Below are positions 55,274 through 64,000 of a stretch of 64,000 nt of DNA, in pieces. How positions within the stretch are numbered: the first letter of the stretch is position 1; each line of letters opens with the position of its first letter. The position numbers and the translations under genes were made by a program. The notes below the pieces were generated by a model. The model was not told where the DNA came from. It did not search any database and saw only the letters and a program-made list of their open reading frames with translations. This DNA is from Gemmatimonadota bacterium (GTDB taxonomy: Bacteria > Gemmatimonadota > Gemmatimonadetes > Palauibacterales > KS3-K002): contig CP070815.1 of assembly GCA_020344215.1 (NCBI GenBank), forward strand, positions 2,600,644 to 2,664,643, given 5' to 3'.

Positions 55274-57070
55274 CTACTGAATCGCCACCTCCTCGTCTCT
55301 AAACTGGTGCTGATACAACCGTGCGTACAATCCGTCCAACGCCAAGAGCTCCGCGTGTGTCCCCGCCTCCACAACCTGGCCGCGGTCCAGCACCAGCACG
55401 CGATCGGCGCGCTGCACCGTGCTCAGACGGTGGGCGATAATCAGTGTCGTCCGACCCTGCATAAGCCGCTGCAGCGCCTCTTCGACCAGGCGCTCGCTCT
55501 CCGTATCCAGGCTGCTGGTCGCCTCGTCGAGGATGAGGAGCTGCGGATCCTTGAGCAGCACACGGGCGATGGAGATCCGCTGCCGCTGGCCGACCGAGAG
55601 CTTCACCCCGCGCTCGCCCACCCGTGATTCGTACCTATCGGGCAGACGCTCGATGAACTCTGCGGCGTGGGCTGCCCCCGCCACCGCTTCGATCTCCTCC
55701 CGCGTCGCAGCATCGCGTCCGTAGGCGATGTTCTCCTCGATGGTCGTCCCGAAGAGCATCGGTTCCTGCGGCACGATGCCGACCGCTAACCTCAGGTCGG
55801 CGAGCTTCAGCTCGCGCAGGTCGTAACCGTCGAGGGCGATCGATCCGCGCGTCGGGTCCCAGAAGCGGGAGACTAGACCGGCCAGCGTCGACTTGCCGGC
55901 ACCGCTCGGCCCCACAAGTGCCACGACTTCTCCCGGCGGGATCTCCAGCTCAACCGCCTGCAACGCCCAGGGCAGCGACGCGCCGTAGCGGAACCAGACG
56001 CCCCGGAATGCCAGGGTCCAGCCTCGCCCCGGCTCCAAGCGCCGCGGCTGCGGCGGGTCGGCCACCGTCGGCTTCTGATCCAAGAGCTCGAAGACCCGCT
56101 CGGCGGCACCCTGCGCCTCCTGGTAGCCACCCCACAGGGAGGCGAGTGAAGTGATGGCCGCCGCAACCATCACCGCGTACAAGAGGAAGGAGACGAGCTG
56201 CCCACCTGTGATATCGCCGGACAGCACCATACGGCCGCCCTGCCAGAGGACGGCGACGATGCCGCCGAAGGTCACCAGCGTGATGGCGCCGAAGAACACA
56301 CCGCGAGTCAAGGCGCGGCTCAACGCCGCCCGCAGCGCCGCGTCGATCCCCTCCCGATACCGCAAGGCCTCCGTCGCCTCGCGAACGAAGCTTTGCACGG
56401 TGCGGATCTGCACGATCGCCTCCTCCGCCACCGTGTTCGCTTCCGCGATCTCGTCCTGCACTAGCGTGCTCGCTCTGCGCAGCCGCCGGCCGAATAGCAT
56501 CGCGAAGAACACGACCGCCGGCGCCACGGCCAGCGTCGTGAAGGTCAGCTGCCGGTGCATCAGCGTGAGCAGGGTGAGCGAGCCCACCAGGTAGAGCAGC
56601 TGGCGCAACAACTCCGAGATCTGATAGCTCAGCACCCCCTGCAACCTCACCACGTCTGAGGTCAGGCGGCTGGTGAGCTCGCCGGTCGTGCGCTCGGTGA
56701 AGAAATCGGGCGACAGCGTGAGTAGGTGAGTGAAGAGATCCTTCCGGATACCGGCGATCACCTTCTCGCCCGTCGCCCCCAGCAGGTAGACCTGGGAGAA
56801 GTTGAAGAGGGCTTGGATACTGAACAGCCCCAGCAGCAGCAGCGCGATCCGGTTGAGCAGTCCTCGATCCATGGCGACGAACGCCGCGTCCATCAGGTGC
56901 CGGACCACCAACGGGAAGGCCAGCCCGATGCTGCCGCTCAACAGCAGCAGAACCGTCGCCGCCGCCAGTGCCCAGCGGTGAGGGTAGAGCCGCGAGCCCA
57001 GGCGCCGGAAGACGAACAGCGGCACCTGGATCGGTGGCACGCGCAGCTTCGTGCGGGTCGTCTCTGCCAT
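55274..57070 (-). CDS. ABC transporter, fused permease/ATPase (exporter type, MsbA-like)
   Basis: Six TM helices, Walker A GPSGAGKST, LSVGQRQR signature, Walker B ILDEATS. Start at MAETTRTKL, 57070. Confidence 0.9.
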   Translation of the reverse strand: MAETTRTKLRVPPIQVPLFVFRRLGSRLYPHRWALAAATVLLLLSGSIGLAFPLVVRHLMDAAFVAMDRGLLNRIALLLLGLFSIQALFNFSQVYLLGATGEKVIAGIRKDLFTHLLTLSPDFFTERTTGELTSRLTSDVVRLQGVLSYQISELLRQLLYLVGSLTLLTLMHRQLTFTTLAVAPAVVFFAMLFGRRLRRASTLVQDEIAEANTVAEEAIVQIRTVQSFVREATEALRYREGIDAALRAALSRALTRGVFFGAITLVTFGGIVAVLWQGGRMVLSGDITGGQLVSFLLYAVMVAAAITSLASLWGGYQEAQGAAERVFELLDQKPTVADPPQPRRLEPGRGWTLAFRGVWFRYGASLPWALQAVELEIPPGEVVALVGPSGAGKSTLAGLVSRFWDPTRGSIALDGYDLRELKLADLRLAVGIVPQEPMLFGTTIEENIAYGRDAATREEIEAVAGAAHAAEFIERLPDRYESRVGERGVKLSVGQRQRISIARVLLKDPQLLILDEATSSLDTESERLVEEALQRLMQGRTTLIIAHRLSTVQRADRVLVLDRGQVVEAGTHAELLALDGLYARLYQHQFRDEEVAIQ

Positions 57071-57370
57071 AGCTACCTGTAATGTAGACGGGGAGGCGGC
57101 CTCTGTCTTGGTGCGGGTTCGGAGGCGGGAGGGCCACCTCCCGCGCTTGCAGCATCTCACTATCGAGGGAGGGGGCGGGAGGACCACCTCGCGTAGTTCG
57201 CGAGCTCACACCGGAGTCTTTGGGTCGCCTTCGGCCGGTGGCGCGAGCACGTAGCGAGTGGTTCTCTCGCCCCCTCCCTCCCGCCAGCGCCCCCTGGCAT
57301 CTCCCTACCGTGTCGCCATATTGCCTTGGCCCACCATGTTCGATATCAGGACACCGGGAGGCGGTAGACC

Positions 57371-58330
57371 ATGTCTGAGCACTCCGAACCGGCGGCGCGA
57401 GCGACGCTGATGCGCTTCGCCGCGCTGGCCTTCGTCACCGCGGTCTTCACCTACGCGCTTATCGTATTCGGCGGCATCGTGAGGATCACCGGCTCCGGCA
57501 TGGGGTGCGGCAACGACTGGCCGCTGTGTAACGGCCGGCTCATTCCACCGATGGACTTCGAGACCCTGATCGAGTACGGCCACCGGCTGGCCGCCCTTCT
57601 CGTCAGCGTCCTCGTCCTCGCCGTCACGGTCTATGCGCTCCGCCACCGTCGATCGATCGGCGCCGGCGGCCGCGGTATCGTCGGGCTGGCTATCGCGGCG
57701 CTCGTTCTCCTGATCGTACAGATCCTGGTCGGCGCCGTCACCGTGTGGCTGGAATTGCCCACCGCCACTGTGGTCCTCCATCTCATCGTCGCATCGACGA
57801 TTCTCGCTCTGTTGATCATCGCCAGCCTCCAGGCGCGGGCGGAGGCGCGCCCGGCGTTCCAGGCCGGCGGCGCGCAAGCCAGCTACCCGCGCTGGGTGGT
57901 GACTACAGCCGCACTCGGCTTCGTTCTTATCCTCTTCGGCGGGCTAGTCGCCAACACCGGCGCCGGGCCGCTCTGCCAGGGCTTCCCACTCTGCAACGGC
58001 CAGCTCTTCCCCGAGGGCGGTGGTCTCGTTCACCTACACTGGACGCACCGGCTGCTCGCCTACGCCATGCTGGTCCTGGTCATACTGTCAACGGCGAAGA
58101 CCTTGCGGGAGAAAGCGCCGCCGCCGATTGGGCGCTGGTCGCTGGCCGCGCTGATCCTGGTCGTGGTGCAGATCGTGGTGGCCGCGGCCCTCGTGCTCCG
58201 TCACCTCCCCTCCGACCTCCGGGGACTGCATTTGGCGGTCGGCGTAGCCTTGTGGGCGGCGCTCGTCGTATGGGCGACCCTCGCCCTGCAGCACGCAGCT
58301 TCGCCGACGCTGCACGGCCGGGCCGCCTAG
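57371..58330 (+). CDS. ctaA: Heme A synthase (CtaA/COX15 family)
   Basis: GGIVRITGSGMGCGNDWPLCNG motif, duplicated four-helix halves with conserved His. Confidence 0.9.
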   Translation: MSEHSEPAARATLMRFAALAFVTAVFTYALIVFGGIVRITGSGMGCGNDWPLCNGRLIPPMDFETLIEYGHRLAALLVSVLVLAVTVYALRHRRSIGAGGRGIVGLAIAALVLLIVQILVGAVTVWLELPTATVVLHLIVASTILALLIIASLQARAEARPAFQAGGAQASYPRWVVTTAALGFVLILFGGLVANTGAGPLCQGFPLCNGQLFPEGGGLVHLHWTHRLLAYAMLVLVILSTAKTLREKAPPPIGRWSLAALILVVVQIVVAAALVLRHLPSDLRGLHLAVGVALWAALVVWATLALQHAASPTLHGRAA

Positions 58331-58368
58331 CGCCGAGCTGACCCAGCCGTGGGAGGCCCCGGCCGGCT

Positions 58369-58797
58369 CTACGCCGCCGGGTATAGCTGGTAGAGCATCA
58401 GGTAGACGACGATCCCGGTGACCGACACGTAGAGCCAGAGCGGGAACGTCCAGCGGGCGATCCGCCGGTGCCGGTCGTACCTCTTCCAGAGCGCGAAGAA
58501 CAGGGTGACGATCACCAGCGGCACGATGATCATCGCAAGGATCGTGTGGGACGCGAGCACGATGAAGTAGATCGTTCGTGCCAAACCCACTCCCGTGAAC
58601 CGGGTCGTGCCCGCGTGATAGTGGTAGAAGAGGTAGCCGGCCAAGAAGAGCACCGAGGTGCCCAGAGCGGACAGCACCAAGGCGCGGTGCAGCGGGACGC
58701 GGCGCTTGCGAATAGCGATGTAGCCGGCGACCAGCAGCAGCCCGCTGGTCGCGTTGAGTACGGCGTTTACCGCGGGAAGATCATCGACGGAGATCAA
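58369..58797 (-). CDS. DUF420 family membrane protein
   Basis: Four-TM protein with a VLNATSGLLLVAGY...YHYHAG pattern like DUF420. Confidence 0.75.
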   Translation of the reverse strand: MISVDDLPAVNAVLNATSGLLLVAGYIAIRKRRVPLHRALVLSALGTSVLFLAGYLFYHYHAGTTRFTGVGLARTIYFIVLASHTILAMIIVPLVIVTLFFALWKRYDRHRRIARWTFPLWLYVSVTGIVVYLMLYQLYPAA

Positions 58798-58829
58798 GCT
58801 ACCCGACCGTCAGGCGGACCCGGGCTGAC

Positions 58830-59021
58830 CTACTCCTCGCCCAGGAAGCGCTTCAGGTTCCTCAAGTACAATACGAACACGACCGTGGCCACGCCGAACC
58901 CGACGGCCGAGGCCAAGGCCCAGAACTGCCGCGAGCTCGCGTAGGCCATGGCGGACCAAACCGCGAACCCTAAGGTGAAGACAATCGCGGTTGAGATGAG
59001 GACTTTGTGAAAGTTGACCAT
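58830..59021 (-). CDS. Small two-TM membrane protein, hypothetical
   Basis: 63-aa hydrophobic ORF between DUF420 and ctaB, same strand. Confidence 0.45.
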   Translation of the reverse strand: MVNFHKVLISTAIVFTLGFAVWSAMAYASSRQFWALASAVGFGVATVVFVLYLRNLKRFLGEE

Positions 59022-59023
59022 CG

Positions 59024-59905
59024 TTAGACCTTATCCACCACCATCAGGATGAGCAGGACGGGGAGATAGAGCACCGAGCCCAGGAACAGGCGACGCGCGT
59101 TCAGGCCGGTGCGTGACGCTGCGAGCGCTACACCCAGGGCCAAGAAGGCCAGTCCCAGCGTCAGCGCGCCGAAGAAGTAGATCGCTCCCGTCAGGCCCAT
59201 CACCGTGGTCAGCAAGCTCACCGCCACGAGCGCCAGCGTGTAAAGGATGATCTGCCGCGAGGTCCGTTTCCCTTCGTCGTCGATCACCGGCAGGATCGGG
59301 AAGCCGGCGCGAGCGTAGTCCTGCTTGTACAACCAGCCGATGGCGAAGAAATGCGGCATCTGCCACAGAAAGACGATCCCGAACAGCACCCAGGCCAGGC
59401 TATCCAGCCGCCCCGTCACCGCCGTGCACCCCATCATCGGCGGGATCGCCCCCGGCACCGCGCCCACCACCGTGCACAGCCAGCTCCGCCGCTTGAGCGG
59501 TGTGTAAGCGAAGATGTAGATCAAAAGCGACGCCGCACCGAGCACCGCCGTCAGCGGGTTGACCAGCGCCACCAGGTACAGCGCACCGCCCACGGAGATC
59601 CCCGCCGAGAACACAAGCGCCGTCGACGACCTGAGCCGCCCGGCGGGCAGCGGCCGCTTACTGGTCCGCTTCATCTCCGCGTCCGCACGTCGCTCGGCCC
59701 ACTGGTTGAGCGCGTTGGTCCCGGCCGCCAAGAGCCCGGTGCCAAGTAGCGTGTGAACCAGAAGCACCCAATCCAGCGACCCTGAAGCCGCGAGGTAGAA
59801 GCCCACACCGGTGGTGATCAGCACCAGCCATGTGATGCCCGGCTTCGTCAGCGCCCAGAGATCGGCGGACACGGTCCTAACGTGCATACTCCAAAAGGAT
59901 GGCAA
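59024..59905 (-). CDS. ctaB: Protoheme IX farnesyltransferase (heme O synthase)
   Basis: UbiA-type prenyltransferase motifs (LAAGTNALNQWAERRADAEMKRTSKRPLPAGRL). Confidence 0.9.
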   Translation of the reverse strand: MPSFWSMHVRTVSADLWALTKPGITWLVLITTGVGFYLAASGSLDWVLLVHTLLGTGLLAAGTNALNQWAERRADAEMKRTSKRPLPAGRLRSSTALVFSAGISVGGALYLVALVNPLTAVLGAASLLIYIFAYTPLKRRSWLCTVVGAVPGAIPPMMGCTAVTGRLDSLAWVLFGIVFLWQMPHFFAIGWLYKQDYARAGFPILPVIDDEGKRTSRQIILYTLALVAVSLLTTVMGLTGAIYFFGALTLGLAFLALGVALAASRTGLNARRLFLGSVLYLPVLLILMVVDKV

Positions 59906-60158
59906 GCACCAGAATGACCGCCAGCGGGAGCGGTGCCGAGGCCAGCAGGATCACCCGCAGCCGCTCGAACCTCAGGTGCATGTAGTACATCGCCACCAGC
60001 GTCGCCTTCCAGATCGCCAACCCGACCAGCACCAGAATCAATACGCTTCGGGGCAGGCCGCTCAGGTAGGCGATCCCCACCTCGACCACTGTCAGCACCA
60101 ATAGCAGGAACCAGATGAAATAGTAGTTCGGCTGCTTCTTCTTCTCCACCATCTCCAT
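59877..60158 (-). CDS. Cytochrome c oxidase subunit IV (prokaryotic COX4_pro type)
   Basis: Three TM helices. AGGTGA RBS before the ATG giving MEMVEKKKQPNYY. The ORF-track GTG at 60203 likely over-extends into the repeat element. Confidence 0.75.
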   Translation of the reverse strand: MEMVEKKKQPNYYFIWFLLLVLTVVEVGIAYLSGLPRSVLILVLVGLAIWKATLVAMYYMHLRFERLRVILLASAPLPLAVILVLAILLEYAR

Positions 60159-60208
60159 CAACTCACCTCGAGACCGCTCGATTCCACGAGCCATTCCCCT
60201 CACTACCC

Positions 60209-60270
60209 CGTCATCCTCGTCCTCGTCATCGTTCTCATTCTCGCCCTCGATGACGAGGGCGAGGGCGACG
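60209..60270. repeat. Hexamer-array palindromic element (TCGTCC-type arm / GACGAG-type arm) between coxIII and coxIV
   Basis: Left arm tcatcc tcgtcc tcgtca tcgttc tcattc tcgccc. Right arm gacgag ggcgag ggcgac gaggag gagta. Confidence 0.65.
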
Positions 60271-60287
60271 AGGAGGAGTACCCCCGA

Positions 60288-60938
60288 TCAGATCAAGTAA
60301 ACGATCGTGAACAGGATGATCCAGACCAGGTCGACGAAGTGCCAATACAGCCCGATCACCTCCACTCCCCCGTGGCTCTCCTTCGTGTAACCGCCGCGGA
60401 ATGCCTTGACGGTCACCCAGACCATGCACAGCACACCGATCGAGACGTGCGCACCGTGGAAGCCCGTCATCGTATAGAACGTCGAGCCGAACAGGTGACA
60501 GCTCGGCACCACGGTCGCGAGCTCCTCGCTGCAGTGCGGCAGGAACCCTTCCCGCGCCAACTCGATGTACTCCATGACTTGGATGCCCACGAAGGCGGCA
60601 CCCAGCAGCACCGTGGCCAGCAGGAAGCGCTTCAGGTTCTTCTGGTCCCCCTGCTCGATAGAGGCGAACCCCTTGACCATCGTCACGCTGCTACAGATCA
60701 GCACGAACGTATTGAAGGCGGTGAGGTTGATGTTGAGCGGTGTTCCACCCTCGTCGAGCGGCACACCCGGCAACGCCCAAGCGCTCGCGCCGAAGCGCAG
60801 GATGATGTAGGCGCCGATCAGCCCGGTGAAGAACATGACCTCGGAAGCCAGGAAGACCCACATCCCCAGCTTCTGGTTGTAGATCCGCATGCCGGGCTCG
60901 GCCTTGACACCTCCCGGGAGTGTTATCGCTTCGTTCAT
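60288..60938 (-). CDS. ctaE: Cytochrome c oxidase subunit III
   Basis: Seven-TM CoxIII pattern (WHFVDLVWIILFTIVY). Confidence 0.95.
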   Translation of the reverse strand: MNEAITLPGGVKAEPGMRIYNQKLGMWVFLASEVMFFTGLIGAYIILRFGASAWALPGVPLDEGGTPLNINLTAFNTFVLICSSVTMVKGFASIEQGDQKNLKRFLLATVLLGAAFVGIQVMEYIELAREGFLPHCSEELATVVPSCHLFGSTFYTMTGFHGAHVSIGVLCMVWVTVKAFRGGYTKESHGGVEVIGLYWHFVDLVWIILFTIVYLI

Positions 60939-60976
60939 CGATCTCGCCTATTCTGTCTCTCCAGTTCCTGCCTGGA

Positions 60977-61051
60977 GTAGTCGGTCGTCAGTGGTCGGTG
61001 GTCAGTAATTCCCAGTTCGCCAATCACCGACCACTGACTACCGATCACCGA
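60977..61051. repeat. Heptamer-array palindromic element (GTGGTCG-type), a sequence relative of the element at 44589-44677, between coxI and coxIII
   Basis: Left arm gtagtcg gtcgtca gtggtcg gtggtca gtaattc. Right arm aatcacc gaccact gactacc gatcacc ga. Ends one base before the coxI stop. Confidence 0.7.
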
Positions 61052-62791
61052 TCACTCCTCTCCGACACCGGCCCCAACAACTTCGCGCTCGCCGTTCAGC
61101 GGGACGTCCTGCGGCAAGTAGTCCTCCTCCACCTCGGGCGAGCTGAACTCGTACGGCCCGCGATAGACGATGGGCGTCACCGCGAAGTTCCCGTGCGGCG
61201 GCGGCGACGCGACCGTCCATTCCAACCCGTTGTCCCGCCACGGGTTGGCTTCGGCCTTCTTGCCTCTGAACAGGCTCCAGAAGAAGTTGGCGATGAGCGG
61301 CAGCTGGGCGACGAACAGCAGAATCGCGCTGATCGTGATGAACTTGTTCAGCGGCTGATACGGCTGCAGGAACTCGTACTGCGTGGGATCGTAGATCCGA
61401 CGCATGTGGCCGCCCATGCCGAGGATGTGCATGGGGAAGAAGGTCAGGTTGTAGAAGATGAATGTGAGCGCAAAGTGGATCTTGCCCCACGCCTCGTTCA
61501 TCATCCGGCCGAACATCTTCGGGAACCAGAAGTAGATGGCGGCAAATATGGCCATCAGGCTGCCGCCGAACAGCACGTAGTGGATGTGGGCGACGATGAA
61601 ATACGTGTCGTGGATGAAGATGTCTACGGAGTTGGACGCCATGAAGATGCCGCTCAACCCACCGATCGTGAACAGCGACACGAACCCGATGGCGAAGAGC
61701 ATCGGCGTGTGGAAGCGCAGGTTCCCACGCCACATGGTGCCCAGCCAGTTGAACACCTTGATCGCCGAGGGGATCGCGATCGCCATCGTCGAGATCATGA
61801 ACGACGTACCCAGCAGCGGGTTCATCCCGCTCTGGAACATGTGGTGGCCCCAGGTGATCCAGCCCAGGAACGCGATGGCGATGATCGCCAGTACCATCGA
61901 GTGGTAGCCGAAGACCGGCTTCCGCGACCCATTGGCGATGACGTCCGAGATGATCCCCATCGCCGGCAGGATCAGGATGTAAACCTCCGGGTGCCCGAAG
62001 AACCAGAACAGGTGCTGCCAGAGGAGCGGCTGCCCGCCGTCCGCAGGCAGGAAAAACGTCGTGCCGAGCGTCTGGTCGAAGAACAGCAAGATCACCGCCG
62101 CTGCCAGGATCGGAACTGCCAACAGCGCTATGATCGCCGTGATGAACAGCGCCCAGATCGACAGCGGCATCCGGAACAGCGTCATCCCAGGCGCCCGCAT
62201 GTTGATTACGGTCGTGATATAATTCACCGAGCCGAGCAGCGAAGAGGCACCGAAGAGAACGATGCTGATGATCCAGAGCTGTTGTCCCAGCGAGACTCCG
62301 GTGTATTGCGGAACGGCACTCAGCGGCGCATAGGCGGTCCAGCCCGCACCCGGCGCACCGCCCTCCACGAACAGGCTCGCCGTCATGACGATCCCCGACT
62401 GTACGAATATCCAGAAGGAGAGCATGTTGAGCCGTGGGAAGGCCATGTCCGGCGCGCCGATCTTCAAAGGGATCAGATAGTTGGCGTAGACGCCGACCAG
62501 CAGCGGCATTACCGCGAAGAAGACCATGAACGTGCCGTGCATCGTCACCAGCGCGTTGTAGAACTTCGGCGCTACAACCCCGACGCCGGGCATCGCCTCA
62601 CCAGGGAACCCGAGCTGCCAGCGCAGCATGATCGCCAGTACCCCGCCGAGCGCCAGGAACGCCAGGCTGGCAAACAGGAACTGAATCCCGATGATCTTGT
62701 GGTCCGTCGAGAAGATGTACTTGCGAACGAAACTCATCTCCTCGTGGTGCCCGTGTGCCAACGGGGCAGCCATCGCCTCAACTGTCGCCAT
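61052..62791 (-). CDS. ctaD: Cytochrome c oxidase subunit I (heme-copper oxidase catalytic subunit)
   Basis: Canonical CoxI His ligands (WFFGHPEVYILILPAMG, HHMF, DTYFIVAHIHYVL). ATG at 62791 lies just after the coxII stop; the ORF-track start at 62830 would overlap. Confidence 0.95.
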   Translation of the reverse strand: MATVEAMAAPLAHGHHEEMSFVRKYIFSTDHKIIGIQFLFASLAFLALGGVLAIMLRWQLGFPGEAMPGVGVVAPKFYNALVTMHGTFMVFFAVMPLLVGVYANYLIPLKIGAPDMAFPRLNMLSFWIFVQSGIVMTASLFVEGGAPGAGWTAYAPLSAVPQYTGVSLGQQLWIISIVLFGASSLLGSVNYITTVINMRAPGMTLFRMPLSIWALFITAIIALLAVPILAAAVILLFFDQTLGTTFFLPADGGQPLLWQHLFWFFGHPEVYILILPAMGIISDVIANGSRKPVFGYHSMVLAIIAIAFLGWITWGHHMFQSGMNPLLGTSFMISTMAIAIPSAIKVFNWLGTMWRGNLRFHTPMLFAIGFVSLFTIGGLSGIFMASNSVDIFIHDTYFIVAHIHYVLFGGSLMAIFAAIYFWFPKMFGRMMNEAWGKIHFALTFIFYNLTFFPMHILGMGGHMRRIYDPTQYEFLQPYQPLNKFITISAILLFVAQLPLIANFFWSLFRGKKAEANPWRDNGLEWTVASPPPHGNFAVTPIVYRGPYEFSSPEVEEDYLPQDVPLNGEREVVGAGVGEE

Positions 62792-62792
62792 A

Positions 62793-63449
62793 TCACTCCC
62801 CCAGCCCGGCGAGCCAGCCCTCGAACTCATCCTGCGGGAGCACGACGACCTTTCCCTTCATAAGACCGTGCGCCACTCCACAGAGCTCGGCACACGCCAG
62901 CTCGTATTCGCCGACCTCGGTCGCCTCGAACCACGCACGCGTGTTCAGTCCCGGCACCGCGTCCTGCTTAATCCGGAACGCCGGCACGAAGAACGAGTGC
63001 ACTACGTCCGCAGACGTCATGTTGAAGACAACCGGCCGGTTCACCGGCACACGCATCTCGTTGTAACGGGTGAAGTCGTCCTCGGTCCCCAGCTCACCAT
63101 CCGGGCCCGGATAGGTGATGCTCCACGCGAACTGCCGCGCCTCGACGTTCAGTTCCAGCGCGTCCGCGGGAAAACGGTCCGGGTTCTTCACCTGGGACCA
63201 GACTCTCTGGCTGGCTACGGCGATCCCAACGATCAGCACCGCCGGGATCACCGTCCAGATGACCTCCGCCTTCGTACTCCCCTCTACATACGAGGCTCGC
63301 CGGCCCTCCCGTCCCCGGTACTTCACCAGGAAATAGACCAGCGTGACTTGCACGCCGACCAGGACGATGCCGGTCACCGCCAGGATGACCCAGAAGATCG
63401 TGTCCAGCTCCGCTGCGTACGACGACGCTGCACCGGGAAGCCAATCCAT
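62793..63449 (-). CDS. ctaC: Cytochrome c oxidase subunit II (CuA, no fused cytochrome c domain)
   Basis: Two N-terminal TM helices; CuA site HSFFVPAF...ELACAELCGVAHGLM. Confidence 0.95.
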   Translation of the reverse strand: MDWLPGAASSYAAELDTIFWVILAVTGIVLVGVQVTLVYFLVKYRGREGRRASYVEGSTKAEVIWTVIPAVLIVGIAVASQRVWSQVKNPDRFPADALELNVEARQFAWSITYPGPDGELGTEDDFTRYNEMRVPVNRPVVFNMTSADVVHSFFVPAFRIKQDAVPGLNTRAWFEATEVGEYELACAELCGVAHGLMKGKVVVLPQDEFEGWLAGLGE

Positions 63450-63832
63450 CTAGTGCTCCTCCTGATTCCCCACACCCGGTATGCGCGCAGGCTGCCACTT
63501 GAGGGCCCGACTGTAGATGTAATCCATCACACCACCACCACGCCCGATCAGCAGAATCCGGCCCTCAGGCCGGTAACGCGCATCAGACCTGAGATTGCAG
63601 TACGCTGCCGGGTACCTCCCGAGTCACCAGCAGCGGCCAGCTCGGACTATCCAGGGTGGAATCCTGCTGTGTCTACCGATAACGGTAATTACTACTGCCC
63701 TGCAGACCGCAAAGTATACCCAACGCCCCCGAGACCTGTCAACGCAGTCCCGAACCTAGCGCCCCCCAGCTCCTCCTTCCCCACGTCGTGTAGCTTTCCC
63801 TCGCGCCGTCCGGTCCATAGCTTTTCACGCCG

Positions 63833-64000
63833 ATGACCGGCGAGCCCACCATTGTAGCCGTCGACACCGGCGGCACGTTCACCGACTTCGTCGTACTGCG
63901 CGGCGAGGCCGTCGCGGTACACAAGCGCGCCTCCACGCCGGCAAACCCGGCGGAAGCGGTGCTGGAGGGTCTGCGCGAGCTCATCGAGCCGGGCGAGGAG
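63833..64000 (+). CDS. Hydantoinase/oxoprolinase family protein (HyuA-like N-terminus); the 3' end runs off the window.
   Basis: MTGEPTIVAVDTGGTFTDFVVL is a typical hydantoinase A N-terminus. Confidence 0.7.
   Translation, partial: MTGEPTIVAVDTGGTFTDFVVLRGEAVAVHKRASTPANPAEAVLEGLRELIEPGEE

Follow-up and report, generated by a model that had tools for sequence, protein, structure and literature searches.

The closest described match to the element studied here is the STRR hairpin of the cyanobacteria Nostoc, Anabaena, and Lyngbya, where 7-bp repeats form hairpins between hupS and hupL and a role in transcript stability or translational coupling has been proposed (PMC2670836). The hyp/hup region of Nostoc is rich in heptamer repeats (PMC2408588). 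Heptamer repeats with the unit TAACTGA were described from marine Beggiatoaceae, cyanobacteria, and some Bacteroidetes; nearly all of them are direct (169 sets compared to 1 inverted set) and mostly placed just upstream of start codons (PMC4679880). Polymerase slippage has been invoked to explain why heptanucleotide simple sequence repeats are in excess in bacteria, as summarized in the same work (PMC4679880). With regard to palindromes, the REP/BIME elements of enterobacteria are imperfect extragenic structures at gene 3′ ends and in intercistronic spacers that are transcribed with the operon, and protective 3′ structures are also found inside operons, such as that of malE-malF and the consecutive hairpins in menBCE (PMC5927463). 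The established effect of both is a block of 3′→5′ exonucleases, resulting in a differential stability of mRNA segments. REPs furthermore have a conserved sequence of 35–40 nt genome-wide and a cognate RAYT transposase.

The element compared with these systems, termed element 1, is located at positions 60974–61058 (minus strand) of the window, i.e., of the whole stretch of 64,000 nt that was analyzed. Like the STRR hairpin, it consists of 7-bp tandem units and lies intercistronically in an operon, between the genes for two subunits of a membrane redox enzyme. The dispersed Nostoc PCC 7120 repeat csR1.3, 'ccactgactactgac' (PMC2408588, Table 3), equals the YACTGAC heptamer of the element 1 arms. 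A search of the window with csR1.3 returned 6 matches with at most two mismatches, where 0.05 were expected, and all of them fell into the loci starting at 44588 and 60977. YACTGAC matches were located at 44647–44661 and 61031–61045, and the ACTGA core is also part of the Beggiatoaceae TAACTGA repeat. One heptamer type thus recurs in different phyla. However, the host differs from that of the STRR hairpins, being Gemmatimonadota-like with 65% GC and not a cyanobacterium, and most members of the family described below have locus-specific units. With the TAACTGA repeats, element 1 has in common the intergenic heptamer array with forward-frame stop codons and the related core, but its arrays are paired in inverted orientation and directly follow a stop codon, instead of being direct and preceding a start codon.

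Element 1 within the cox operon

Genes were assigned from open reading frames (ORFs) and Pfam scans, which took in 18 proteins of the window. On the minus strand, the operon comprises coxII (62793–63449), coxI (61052–62830, Pfam COX1), coxIII (60288–60938, stop codon at 60288–60290), coxIV (ending at 59877), ctaB (59024–59905), and DUF420 (58369–58797), with a 63-aa minus-strand ORF listed between the latter two; ctaA (57371–58330, plus strand) is divergent from the cox genes. The earlier note had placed the element inside this co-directional operon rather than at a convergent junction, more precisely between the coxI stop and the coxIII start. Both statements agree with the gene map, as minus-strand coxI and coxIII flank the element in a spacer of 113 nt and 35 nt separate the end of the stem from the coxIII ATG. 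The gene call on the identical contig L081 starts coxIV at the ATG at 60158, which follows GAGGTGAG and opens the protein with MEMVEKKK; this is probably the correct start, and not the GTG at 60203, so that the coxIII-coxIV spacer would measure 129 nt. A sigma-70-like match of 11/12 (TTGACA-18-TATACT) at 63713–63742 on the minus strand, approximately 260 nt upstream of coxII, is likely the operon promoter. The consensus promoter scan also gave one 9/12 match within coxIII, which was not significant.

The heptamer-array hairpin that had been recognized in the letters at 60977–61051 was borne out by the sequence, TRF, arm complementarity, the predicted fold, and shuffling. On the plus strand, the left array reads GTAGTC GGTCGTC AGTGGTC GGTGGTC AGTAATT and is followed by the loop and the right array CACCGAC CACTGAC TACCGAT CACCGAT CAC. 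The unit can be written as RGTNGTC, with approximately five tandem heptamers per arm. TRF returned period-7 arrays at 60980–61003 and 61023–61055, and a repeat search delimited arms of 20 nt with 95% complementarity. The lag-7 self-identity of the arms was 0.68–0.71, a value attained by 0 to 3 of 100,000 shuffles. As minus-strand RNA (61058–60974, 85 bases), element 1 was predicted to fold into an imperfect hairpin of 33 bp with −48.2 kcal/mol (z = −6.24), which none of 200 dinucleotide shuffles matched. The RNA of the full coxI-coxIII spacer reached −52.8 kcal/mol.

In this fold, five helices are separated by internal loops of 1–2 nt. The 5′ arm GGAGUGAUCGGUGAUCGGUAGUCAGUGGUCGGUGAUU (61022–61058, minus strand) corresponds to GUGAUCG GUGAUCG GUAGUCA GUGGUCG GUGAUUG in the mRNA and contains stop codons in all three frames. 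It is followed by the loop GGCGAACUGGG (61011–61021, minus strand) and the 3′ arm AAUUACUGACCACCGACCACUGACGACCGACUACUCC (60974–61010, minus strand), an array of heptamers complementary to the 5′ arm. According to the ORF, the Pfam COX1 match, and the fold, the TGA stop codon of coxI (61052–61054, minus strand) lies within the basal helix. The subsequent coxIII leader AGGCAGGAACUGGAGAGACAGAAUAGGCGAGAUCG (60939–60973, minus strand; 35 nt) is unstructured in the fold and likely carries the ribosome-binding site, which is not sequestered by element 1.

Two Logan contigs with the exact CoxIII, L081 and L082 from the samples SRR14739666 and SRR35494106, were 100% identical to the window. The short-read contig L082 starts inside the hairpin (its position 1 equals approximately 61012 of the window), so assemblers do break there, as would be expected if the element were an assembly or sequencing artefact; such palindromes may also be under-represented in MAGs for this reason. 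However, the independent assembly L081 is identical over the entire element 1, homologous hairpins were found in several independent metagenomes, the sequence of the related lineage L166 was found again on contig L167, and the two copies L173 and L174 are near-identical. The probability of an artefact is hence regarded as negligible.

Element 1 resembles an intrinsic terminator in being a GC-rich stem-loop past a stop codon and in belonging to a family with members at convergent gene ends. It differs in its stem of 33 bp with internal loops, compared to 5–15 bp, in lacking a U-tract, and in that the cox copies precede co-transcribed essential genes. A consensus terminator scan of positions 57000–64000 returned no site at element 1 or at element 2, the second array hairpin of the operon, and all nine terminator-like hits were intragenic. 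A T-run after the stem was absent at element 1, where the sequence is AGGCAGGAACUGG, and without a U-tract element 1 does not qualify as a canonical intrinsic terminator. An Rfam search of the whole window at the gathering threshold gave 0 hits, and at E ≤ 1 the region 59800–61300 yielded only sub-threshold, miRNA-precursor-like matches that reflect generic long hairpins.

Array hairpins in the window and in other phyla

Element 1 had been described as one member of a family, with a second, hexamer-type element one gene further along the operon. Both statements hold. Element 2 (60199–60278, minus strand) is located between the coxIII stop and coxIV, folds with −48.8 kcal/mol, has 26-nt arms with 85% complementarity, and shows a lag-6 identity of 0.71–0.76 in its arms. 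Hairpins of period-6 or period-7 arrays were also found at 12352–12482, 30314–30428, and 44588–44680. The last of these is a sister locus at a convergent junction, whose heptamer, RGTNGTC, is that of element 1 while its loop and flanks are unrelated. The dimer pattern RGTNGTCRGTNGTC occurs 10 times in comparison to 1.2 expected occurrences, nine of them in the loci 44588 and 60977, and RGTNGTC arrays are present at 2 loci within 64 kb, the remaining members using other units. The stop codon of the gene at 43962–44600 sits within the 44588 array, as the TAG (44598–44600) of a GGTAGTC unit.

The hairpin at 30314–30428 (period 7, CGAATGT/TGAATGG units, −69.6 kcal/mol, z = −6.7) is flanked by convergent genes of the hydrogenase-maturation type (29244–32716), for an AIR-synthase-family (HypE-like) protein and HypF, a likeness to the hyp/hup repeats of Nostoc that is probably a coincidence. 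At 12352–12482, a convergent junction holds a hexamer-array hairpin (TCGTAA/TCGTAC ... GAGTAG/GAGTAC) with −64 kcal/mol and z = −5.95, which has CGTCATCCTC(A/G)TC in common with element 2. A degenerate, weakly period-7 hairpin at 20914–20987 (−46 to −49 kcal/mol), also at a convergent junction, is possibly a decayed family member. In the same convergent spacer, at a distance of 30 nt, a direct heptamer array (GATGCGG GATGTTG GATGTGG) was observed at 21019–21041; with neither an inverted partner nor a significant fold, it was excluded from the family.

A gene map based on GC3 gave 33 spacers of at least 30 nt, namely 7 convergent, 7 divergent, and 19 co-directional ones. The five or six array hairpins per 64 kb occupy three to four of the convergent spacers, two of the co-directional, and none of the divergent spacers. 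This distribution would suit a U-tract-independent (I-shaped) terminator or pause element that acts bidirectionally at convergent junctions and as a leaky attenuator in the cox operon. Of the array hairpins, the region 57000–64000 contains just the two cox elements, and neither overlaps with a canonical site of hairpin plus U-tract there, as expected for such an element. Hairpins lacking U-tracts generally terminate poorly with high-GC RNA polymerases in vitro, however, and a T-run was sought after the family members and was absent at every one. Termination upstream of the essential coxIII and coxIV, as well as ctaB, would moreover be costly, and related lineages manage without the hairpin, which makes a terminator of this kind improbable.

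These predicted hairpins have an architecture in common but no conserved sequence, which speaks against a mobile element of the MITE or REP type. Spreading as a non-autonomous element (MITE or REP/REPIN-like) by a transposase such as RAYT would account for the extragenic distribution with its bias toward gene 3′ ends, as known for REPs, for the presence of one heptamer type at two loci, and for the variable presence among relatives. In contrast to REPs, only a heptamer is conserved here and the arms are internally periodic, so that of the REP characteristics the 3′-end bias was found and the consensus was not. The loci 44588 and 60977 do not share any loop, flank, or terminal sequence, the units of the other members are unrelated, and orthologues differ in unit number and sequence at a fixed site. 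A MITE was rejected, as neither a pattern of terminal inverted repeats and target-site duplications nor a clean presence/absence was seen; losses left remnants of the 5′ arm in the non-carriers rather than clean excisions. Mobility by a transposase is accordingly considered very improbable.

For a broader comparison, 1.88 Mb of loci around coxIII were fetched from many phyla, and hairpins with arms of at least 18 nt were scored. Among the 98 hairpins obtained, 26 had periodic arms, and 20 of these were of period 7, each with its own unit. The hosts of the period-7 hairpins were Acidobacteriota, Gemmatimonadota, Chloroflexota, Planctomycetota, and the unassigned metagenome contig L108. In a set of 1.97 Mb, an inverted partner within 120 nt was found for 37 of 52 heptamer arrays in comparison to 3 of 59 hexamer arrays. 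The heptamer arrays in the sampled phyla are thus mostly paired as palindromes, whereas STRR and related repeats have been described mostly as direct arrays. Based on rough gene calls, most heptamer-array hairpins start between −11 and +17 nt from the upstream stop codon. Two Gemmatimonadales MAGs carry orthologous heptamer hairpins downstream of ctaB (L008, 12088–12152; L009, 3570–3645) with the units GGGAGCG and GGGAGCA, respectively, which is a second case of whole-array unit turnover at a fixed site.

STRR-like heptamer hairpins now extend beyond cyanobacteria, and the combination of period 7, palindromic pairing, and stop-codon proximity in several phyla bears on the origin and persistence of bacterial repeats and palindromes. 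For heptamer hairpins beyond cyanobacteria and Beggiatoaceae, the literature searches returned nothing specific, and a search for REP elements near stop codons in connection with ribosome stalling did not return a paper. It is a tentative proposal, and one that we consider rather unlikely, that heptamer-array hairpins constitute a bacterial element class of their own, widespread but for the most part undescribed. If true, it would imply a dedicated mechanism for generating or maintaining them, either slippage in a 7-nt register together with correction templated by the hairpin or a protein recognizing units of 7 nt, and might also imply an RNA function close to the stop codon that is common to several phyla.

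The coxI-coxIII junction in related lineages

The junction was compared in eight related lineages with a CoxIII identity of 84–94% and the same synteny. The closest GTDB species representatives, with a CoxIII identity of only 63–64%, are too distant to judge gain or loss of element 1, and named CoxIII relatives at 65–81% identity belong to Gemmatimonadetes/Longimicrobiales. Lineage L166 has a clearly orthologous hairpin with the same units (GTGATCG), one fewer in number, and a similar loop (spacer −42.6 kcal/mol). A heptamer hairpin with GGTGGCC/AGTAGCC units paired with CTACCGG/TTACCGG was found in L168 (−48 kcal/mol), and one with GGTATGC/GGTGTGC units in L173 and L174 (−51.6 kcal/mol), whose copies differ by one SNP in an arm; the loops of L168 and L173 differ from that of the window. 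In L168, the coxI stop is located inside the array, as the TAG (2129–2131) of an AGTAGCC unit. All carriers have the unit form RGTRNNC, a loop-adjacent RGTAAYY unit, and direct contact with the coxI stop in common, which supports the homology of their hairpins.

In the remaining lineages, the spacers are shorter. Those of L163–L165 (52 nt) contain two direct units only (GTCAGTGG GTCAGTAG), and that of L169 (59 nt) approximately two decayed units (GGTGGTGGCTGG), while the spacers of L170/L171 (41 nt) and L083 (35 nt) are plain. Spacers lacking the hairpin (35–59 nt) had minimum free energies of about −10 to −13 kcal/mol, and these weak folds indicate that no substitute structure is present where the hairpin is absent.

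A neighbor-joining tree with bootstrap was calculated from the CoxI C-terminus, CoxIII, and CoxIV. The window, L163, L173, L168, L166, and L169 form one clade with 100% bootstrap, and four of these six lineages carry the hairpin. The carrier L166 and the non-carrier L169 are sisters, again with 100% bootstrap, and their CoxIII proteins are 94% identical. Approximately two direct 5′-arm units are kept in L163 and L169, and the plain spacers of L170/L171 and L083, the outgroups, have none. Most parsimoniously, the hairpin was gained once, at the root of the clade, and decayed twice.

The coxIII-coxIV spacer is no less variable: the window has a hairpin there, L170/L171 a small hairpin of hexamers, L173 and L168 direct purine-rich hexamer arrays, and L163 nothing. 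Upstream of coxIV, GCGGGCGGGGGC is repeated 2.5 times in L168 (2895–2935), and GATGGAGACGGA repeats are present in L173 (7165–7215). Given their repeated GGAG or G-runs, these hexamer/dodecamer arrays might function like Shine-Dalgarno sites or fold into a G-quadruplex.

With regard to the mode of evolution, RNAalifold on the carriers gave 30 consensus pairs, 13 of which were changed on both sides. These two-sided changes (U-A / G-C / C-G) affect one and the same position of the heptamer, in all units of either arm, which points to concerted evolution and not to many independent compensations. The arms of L173 are each homogenized to their own variant (GTATGC and the complement of GTGTGC), leaving A·C mismatches on the sense strand, and within-arm turnover is thus faster than the matching between arms. 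At the sequence level, the comparison showed that element 1 originated a single time between coxI and coxIII, in a small clade of Gemmatimonadota-like bacteria without cultured members, that it evolves by gain and loss of units and by within-arm homogenization while the arms stay broadly complementary, and that it was lost repeatedly through deletion of the loop and the distal arm with no replacement. Slipped-strand mispairing in a 7-nt register would change the length of the arrays, and the arms would stay alike through correction directed by the palindrome (with the hairpin as template) or through weak selection on pairing. The spacer right after a stop codon would tolerate such an element, which may be why it survives there. 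As the array contains stop codons in all three frames, it can supply a gene's own stop codon. The stop codons inside the arrays at 44598–44600 of the window and in L168 give the appearance of arrays overwriting gene 3′ ends, a process that may explain the variable C-terminal tail of CoxI.

For the cox locus, the outcome is mostly deflationary, in that element 1 behaves as a repeat palindrome with rapid turnover, whose loss in close relatives was not compensated. We consider it likely, though by no means assured, that element 1 is an STRR-like heptamer palindrome shaped mainly by repeat dynamics and dispensable for the cox operon, with at most a modest effect on mRNA stability or processing. 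In this reading, it is neither a canonical terminator nor a conserved regulatory device of the cox operon.

Possible effects on the cox mRNA

As the operon is transcribed through element 1, the cox mRNA bears a stem-loop of −48 kcal/mol with the coxI stop in its base. In analogy to malE-malF and menBCE, this stem-loop would most likely impede 3′→5′ exonucleases or serve as a double-stranded site for RNA processing. It would stabilize the 3′ end of the coxII-coxI segment and uncouple the translation of coxIII from that of coxI. Element 2 would act likewise after coxIII, leading to a stepwise decay along the operon; consecutive hairpins after successive genes are found in menBCE and in the cox operon alike. 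The location of the coxI stop inside the basal helix means that a terminating ribosome must melt that helix, and element 1 would also separate coxIII initiation from coxI termination.

The earlier note had suggested a role in differential mRNA stability or partial termination. In such a role, element 1 would be a selected intra-operon regulator that tunes the ratios of subunits or assembly factors. Four diverged lineages indeed have the hairpin at this one junction, their arm complementarity surviving complete unit turnover, and within 17–20 kb around the operon, L173 has no other long hairpin and L166 has just one other. Precedents exist in the protective structures of operons (PMC5927463) and in the hupS-hupL STRR hairpins (PMC2670836). 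Array hairpins were also found on both sides of coxIII in the Chloroflexota MAG L013 (3696–3744 and 4360–4411, AATGAAC units) and in the Acidobacteria MAG L076 (4896–4966 and 5588–5676, with its own unit), and upstream of coxIII only in the Acidobacteriota locus L007 (approximately 1900–2000, a heptamer hairpin with again another unit), where a direct heptamer array follows downstream (after 2585). This recurrence around coxIII in other phyla could mean selection at cox spacers and not mere tolerance.

However, the comparison with the same operon in relatives, which had been proposed as a check, gave a divided answer. The hairpin was kept in four lineages, but L169 and L163 have lost it without a substitute, and L170/L171 and L083, whose synteny is identical, do not have it, which weakens the proposed role in mRNA stability or termination. 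Mismatches occur at the polymorphic heptamer position, as independent homogenization of the arms predicts, and there is no U-tract. A higher stability of the sense than of the antisense strand was tested as a signal of RNA-level selection in four carriers and had no consistent sign. The sense and antisense energies were −48.2 and −44.0 kcal/mol in the window and −47.3 and −43.9 kcal/mol in L168, compared to −37.2 and −45.3 kcal/mol in L166 and −42.9 and −58.3 kcal/mol in L173, the antisense being more stable by 8 and 15 kcal/mol in the latter two. Without a consistent direction, these values cannot be used as support for RNA-level selection. A selected regulator is therefore regarded as possible but doubtful. 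Nevertheless, since four diverged lineages have retained the hairpin precisely at this junction and with complementary arms, a modulatory effect at the RNA level is still plausible. As one syntenic operon offers carriers, variants of the units, remnants, and empty sites, the lineages represent a clean natural series, suited to tests of how an intercistronic stem-loop abutting a stop codon affects mRNA decay and translational coupling.

Outside the operon, a non-periodic inverted repeat was observed at 57165–57280, with G-rich arms of 23 nt (GAGGGAGGGGGCGGGAGGACCAC, 91% complementary) and a loop of 70 nt. Its left arm overlaps the 5′ end of an ABC-transporter ORF as called (55274–57187), and the remainder lies in the divergent spacer before ctaA. 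Over positions 1–64000, the cumulative GC skew declines almost monotonically from −0.09 to −1.76, which places the window within one replichore with a C-rich plus strand.
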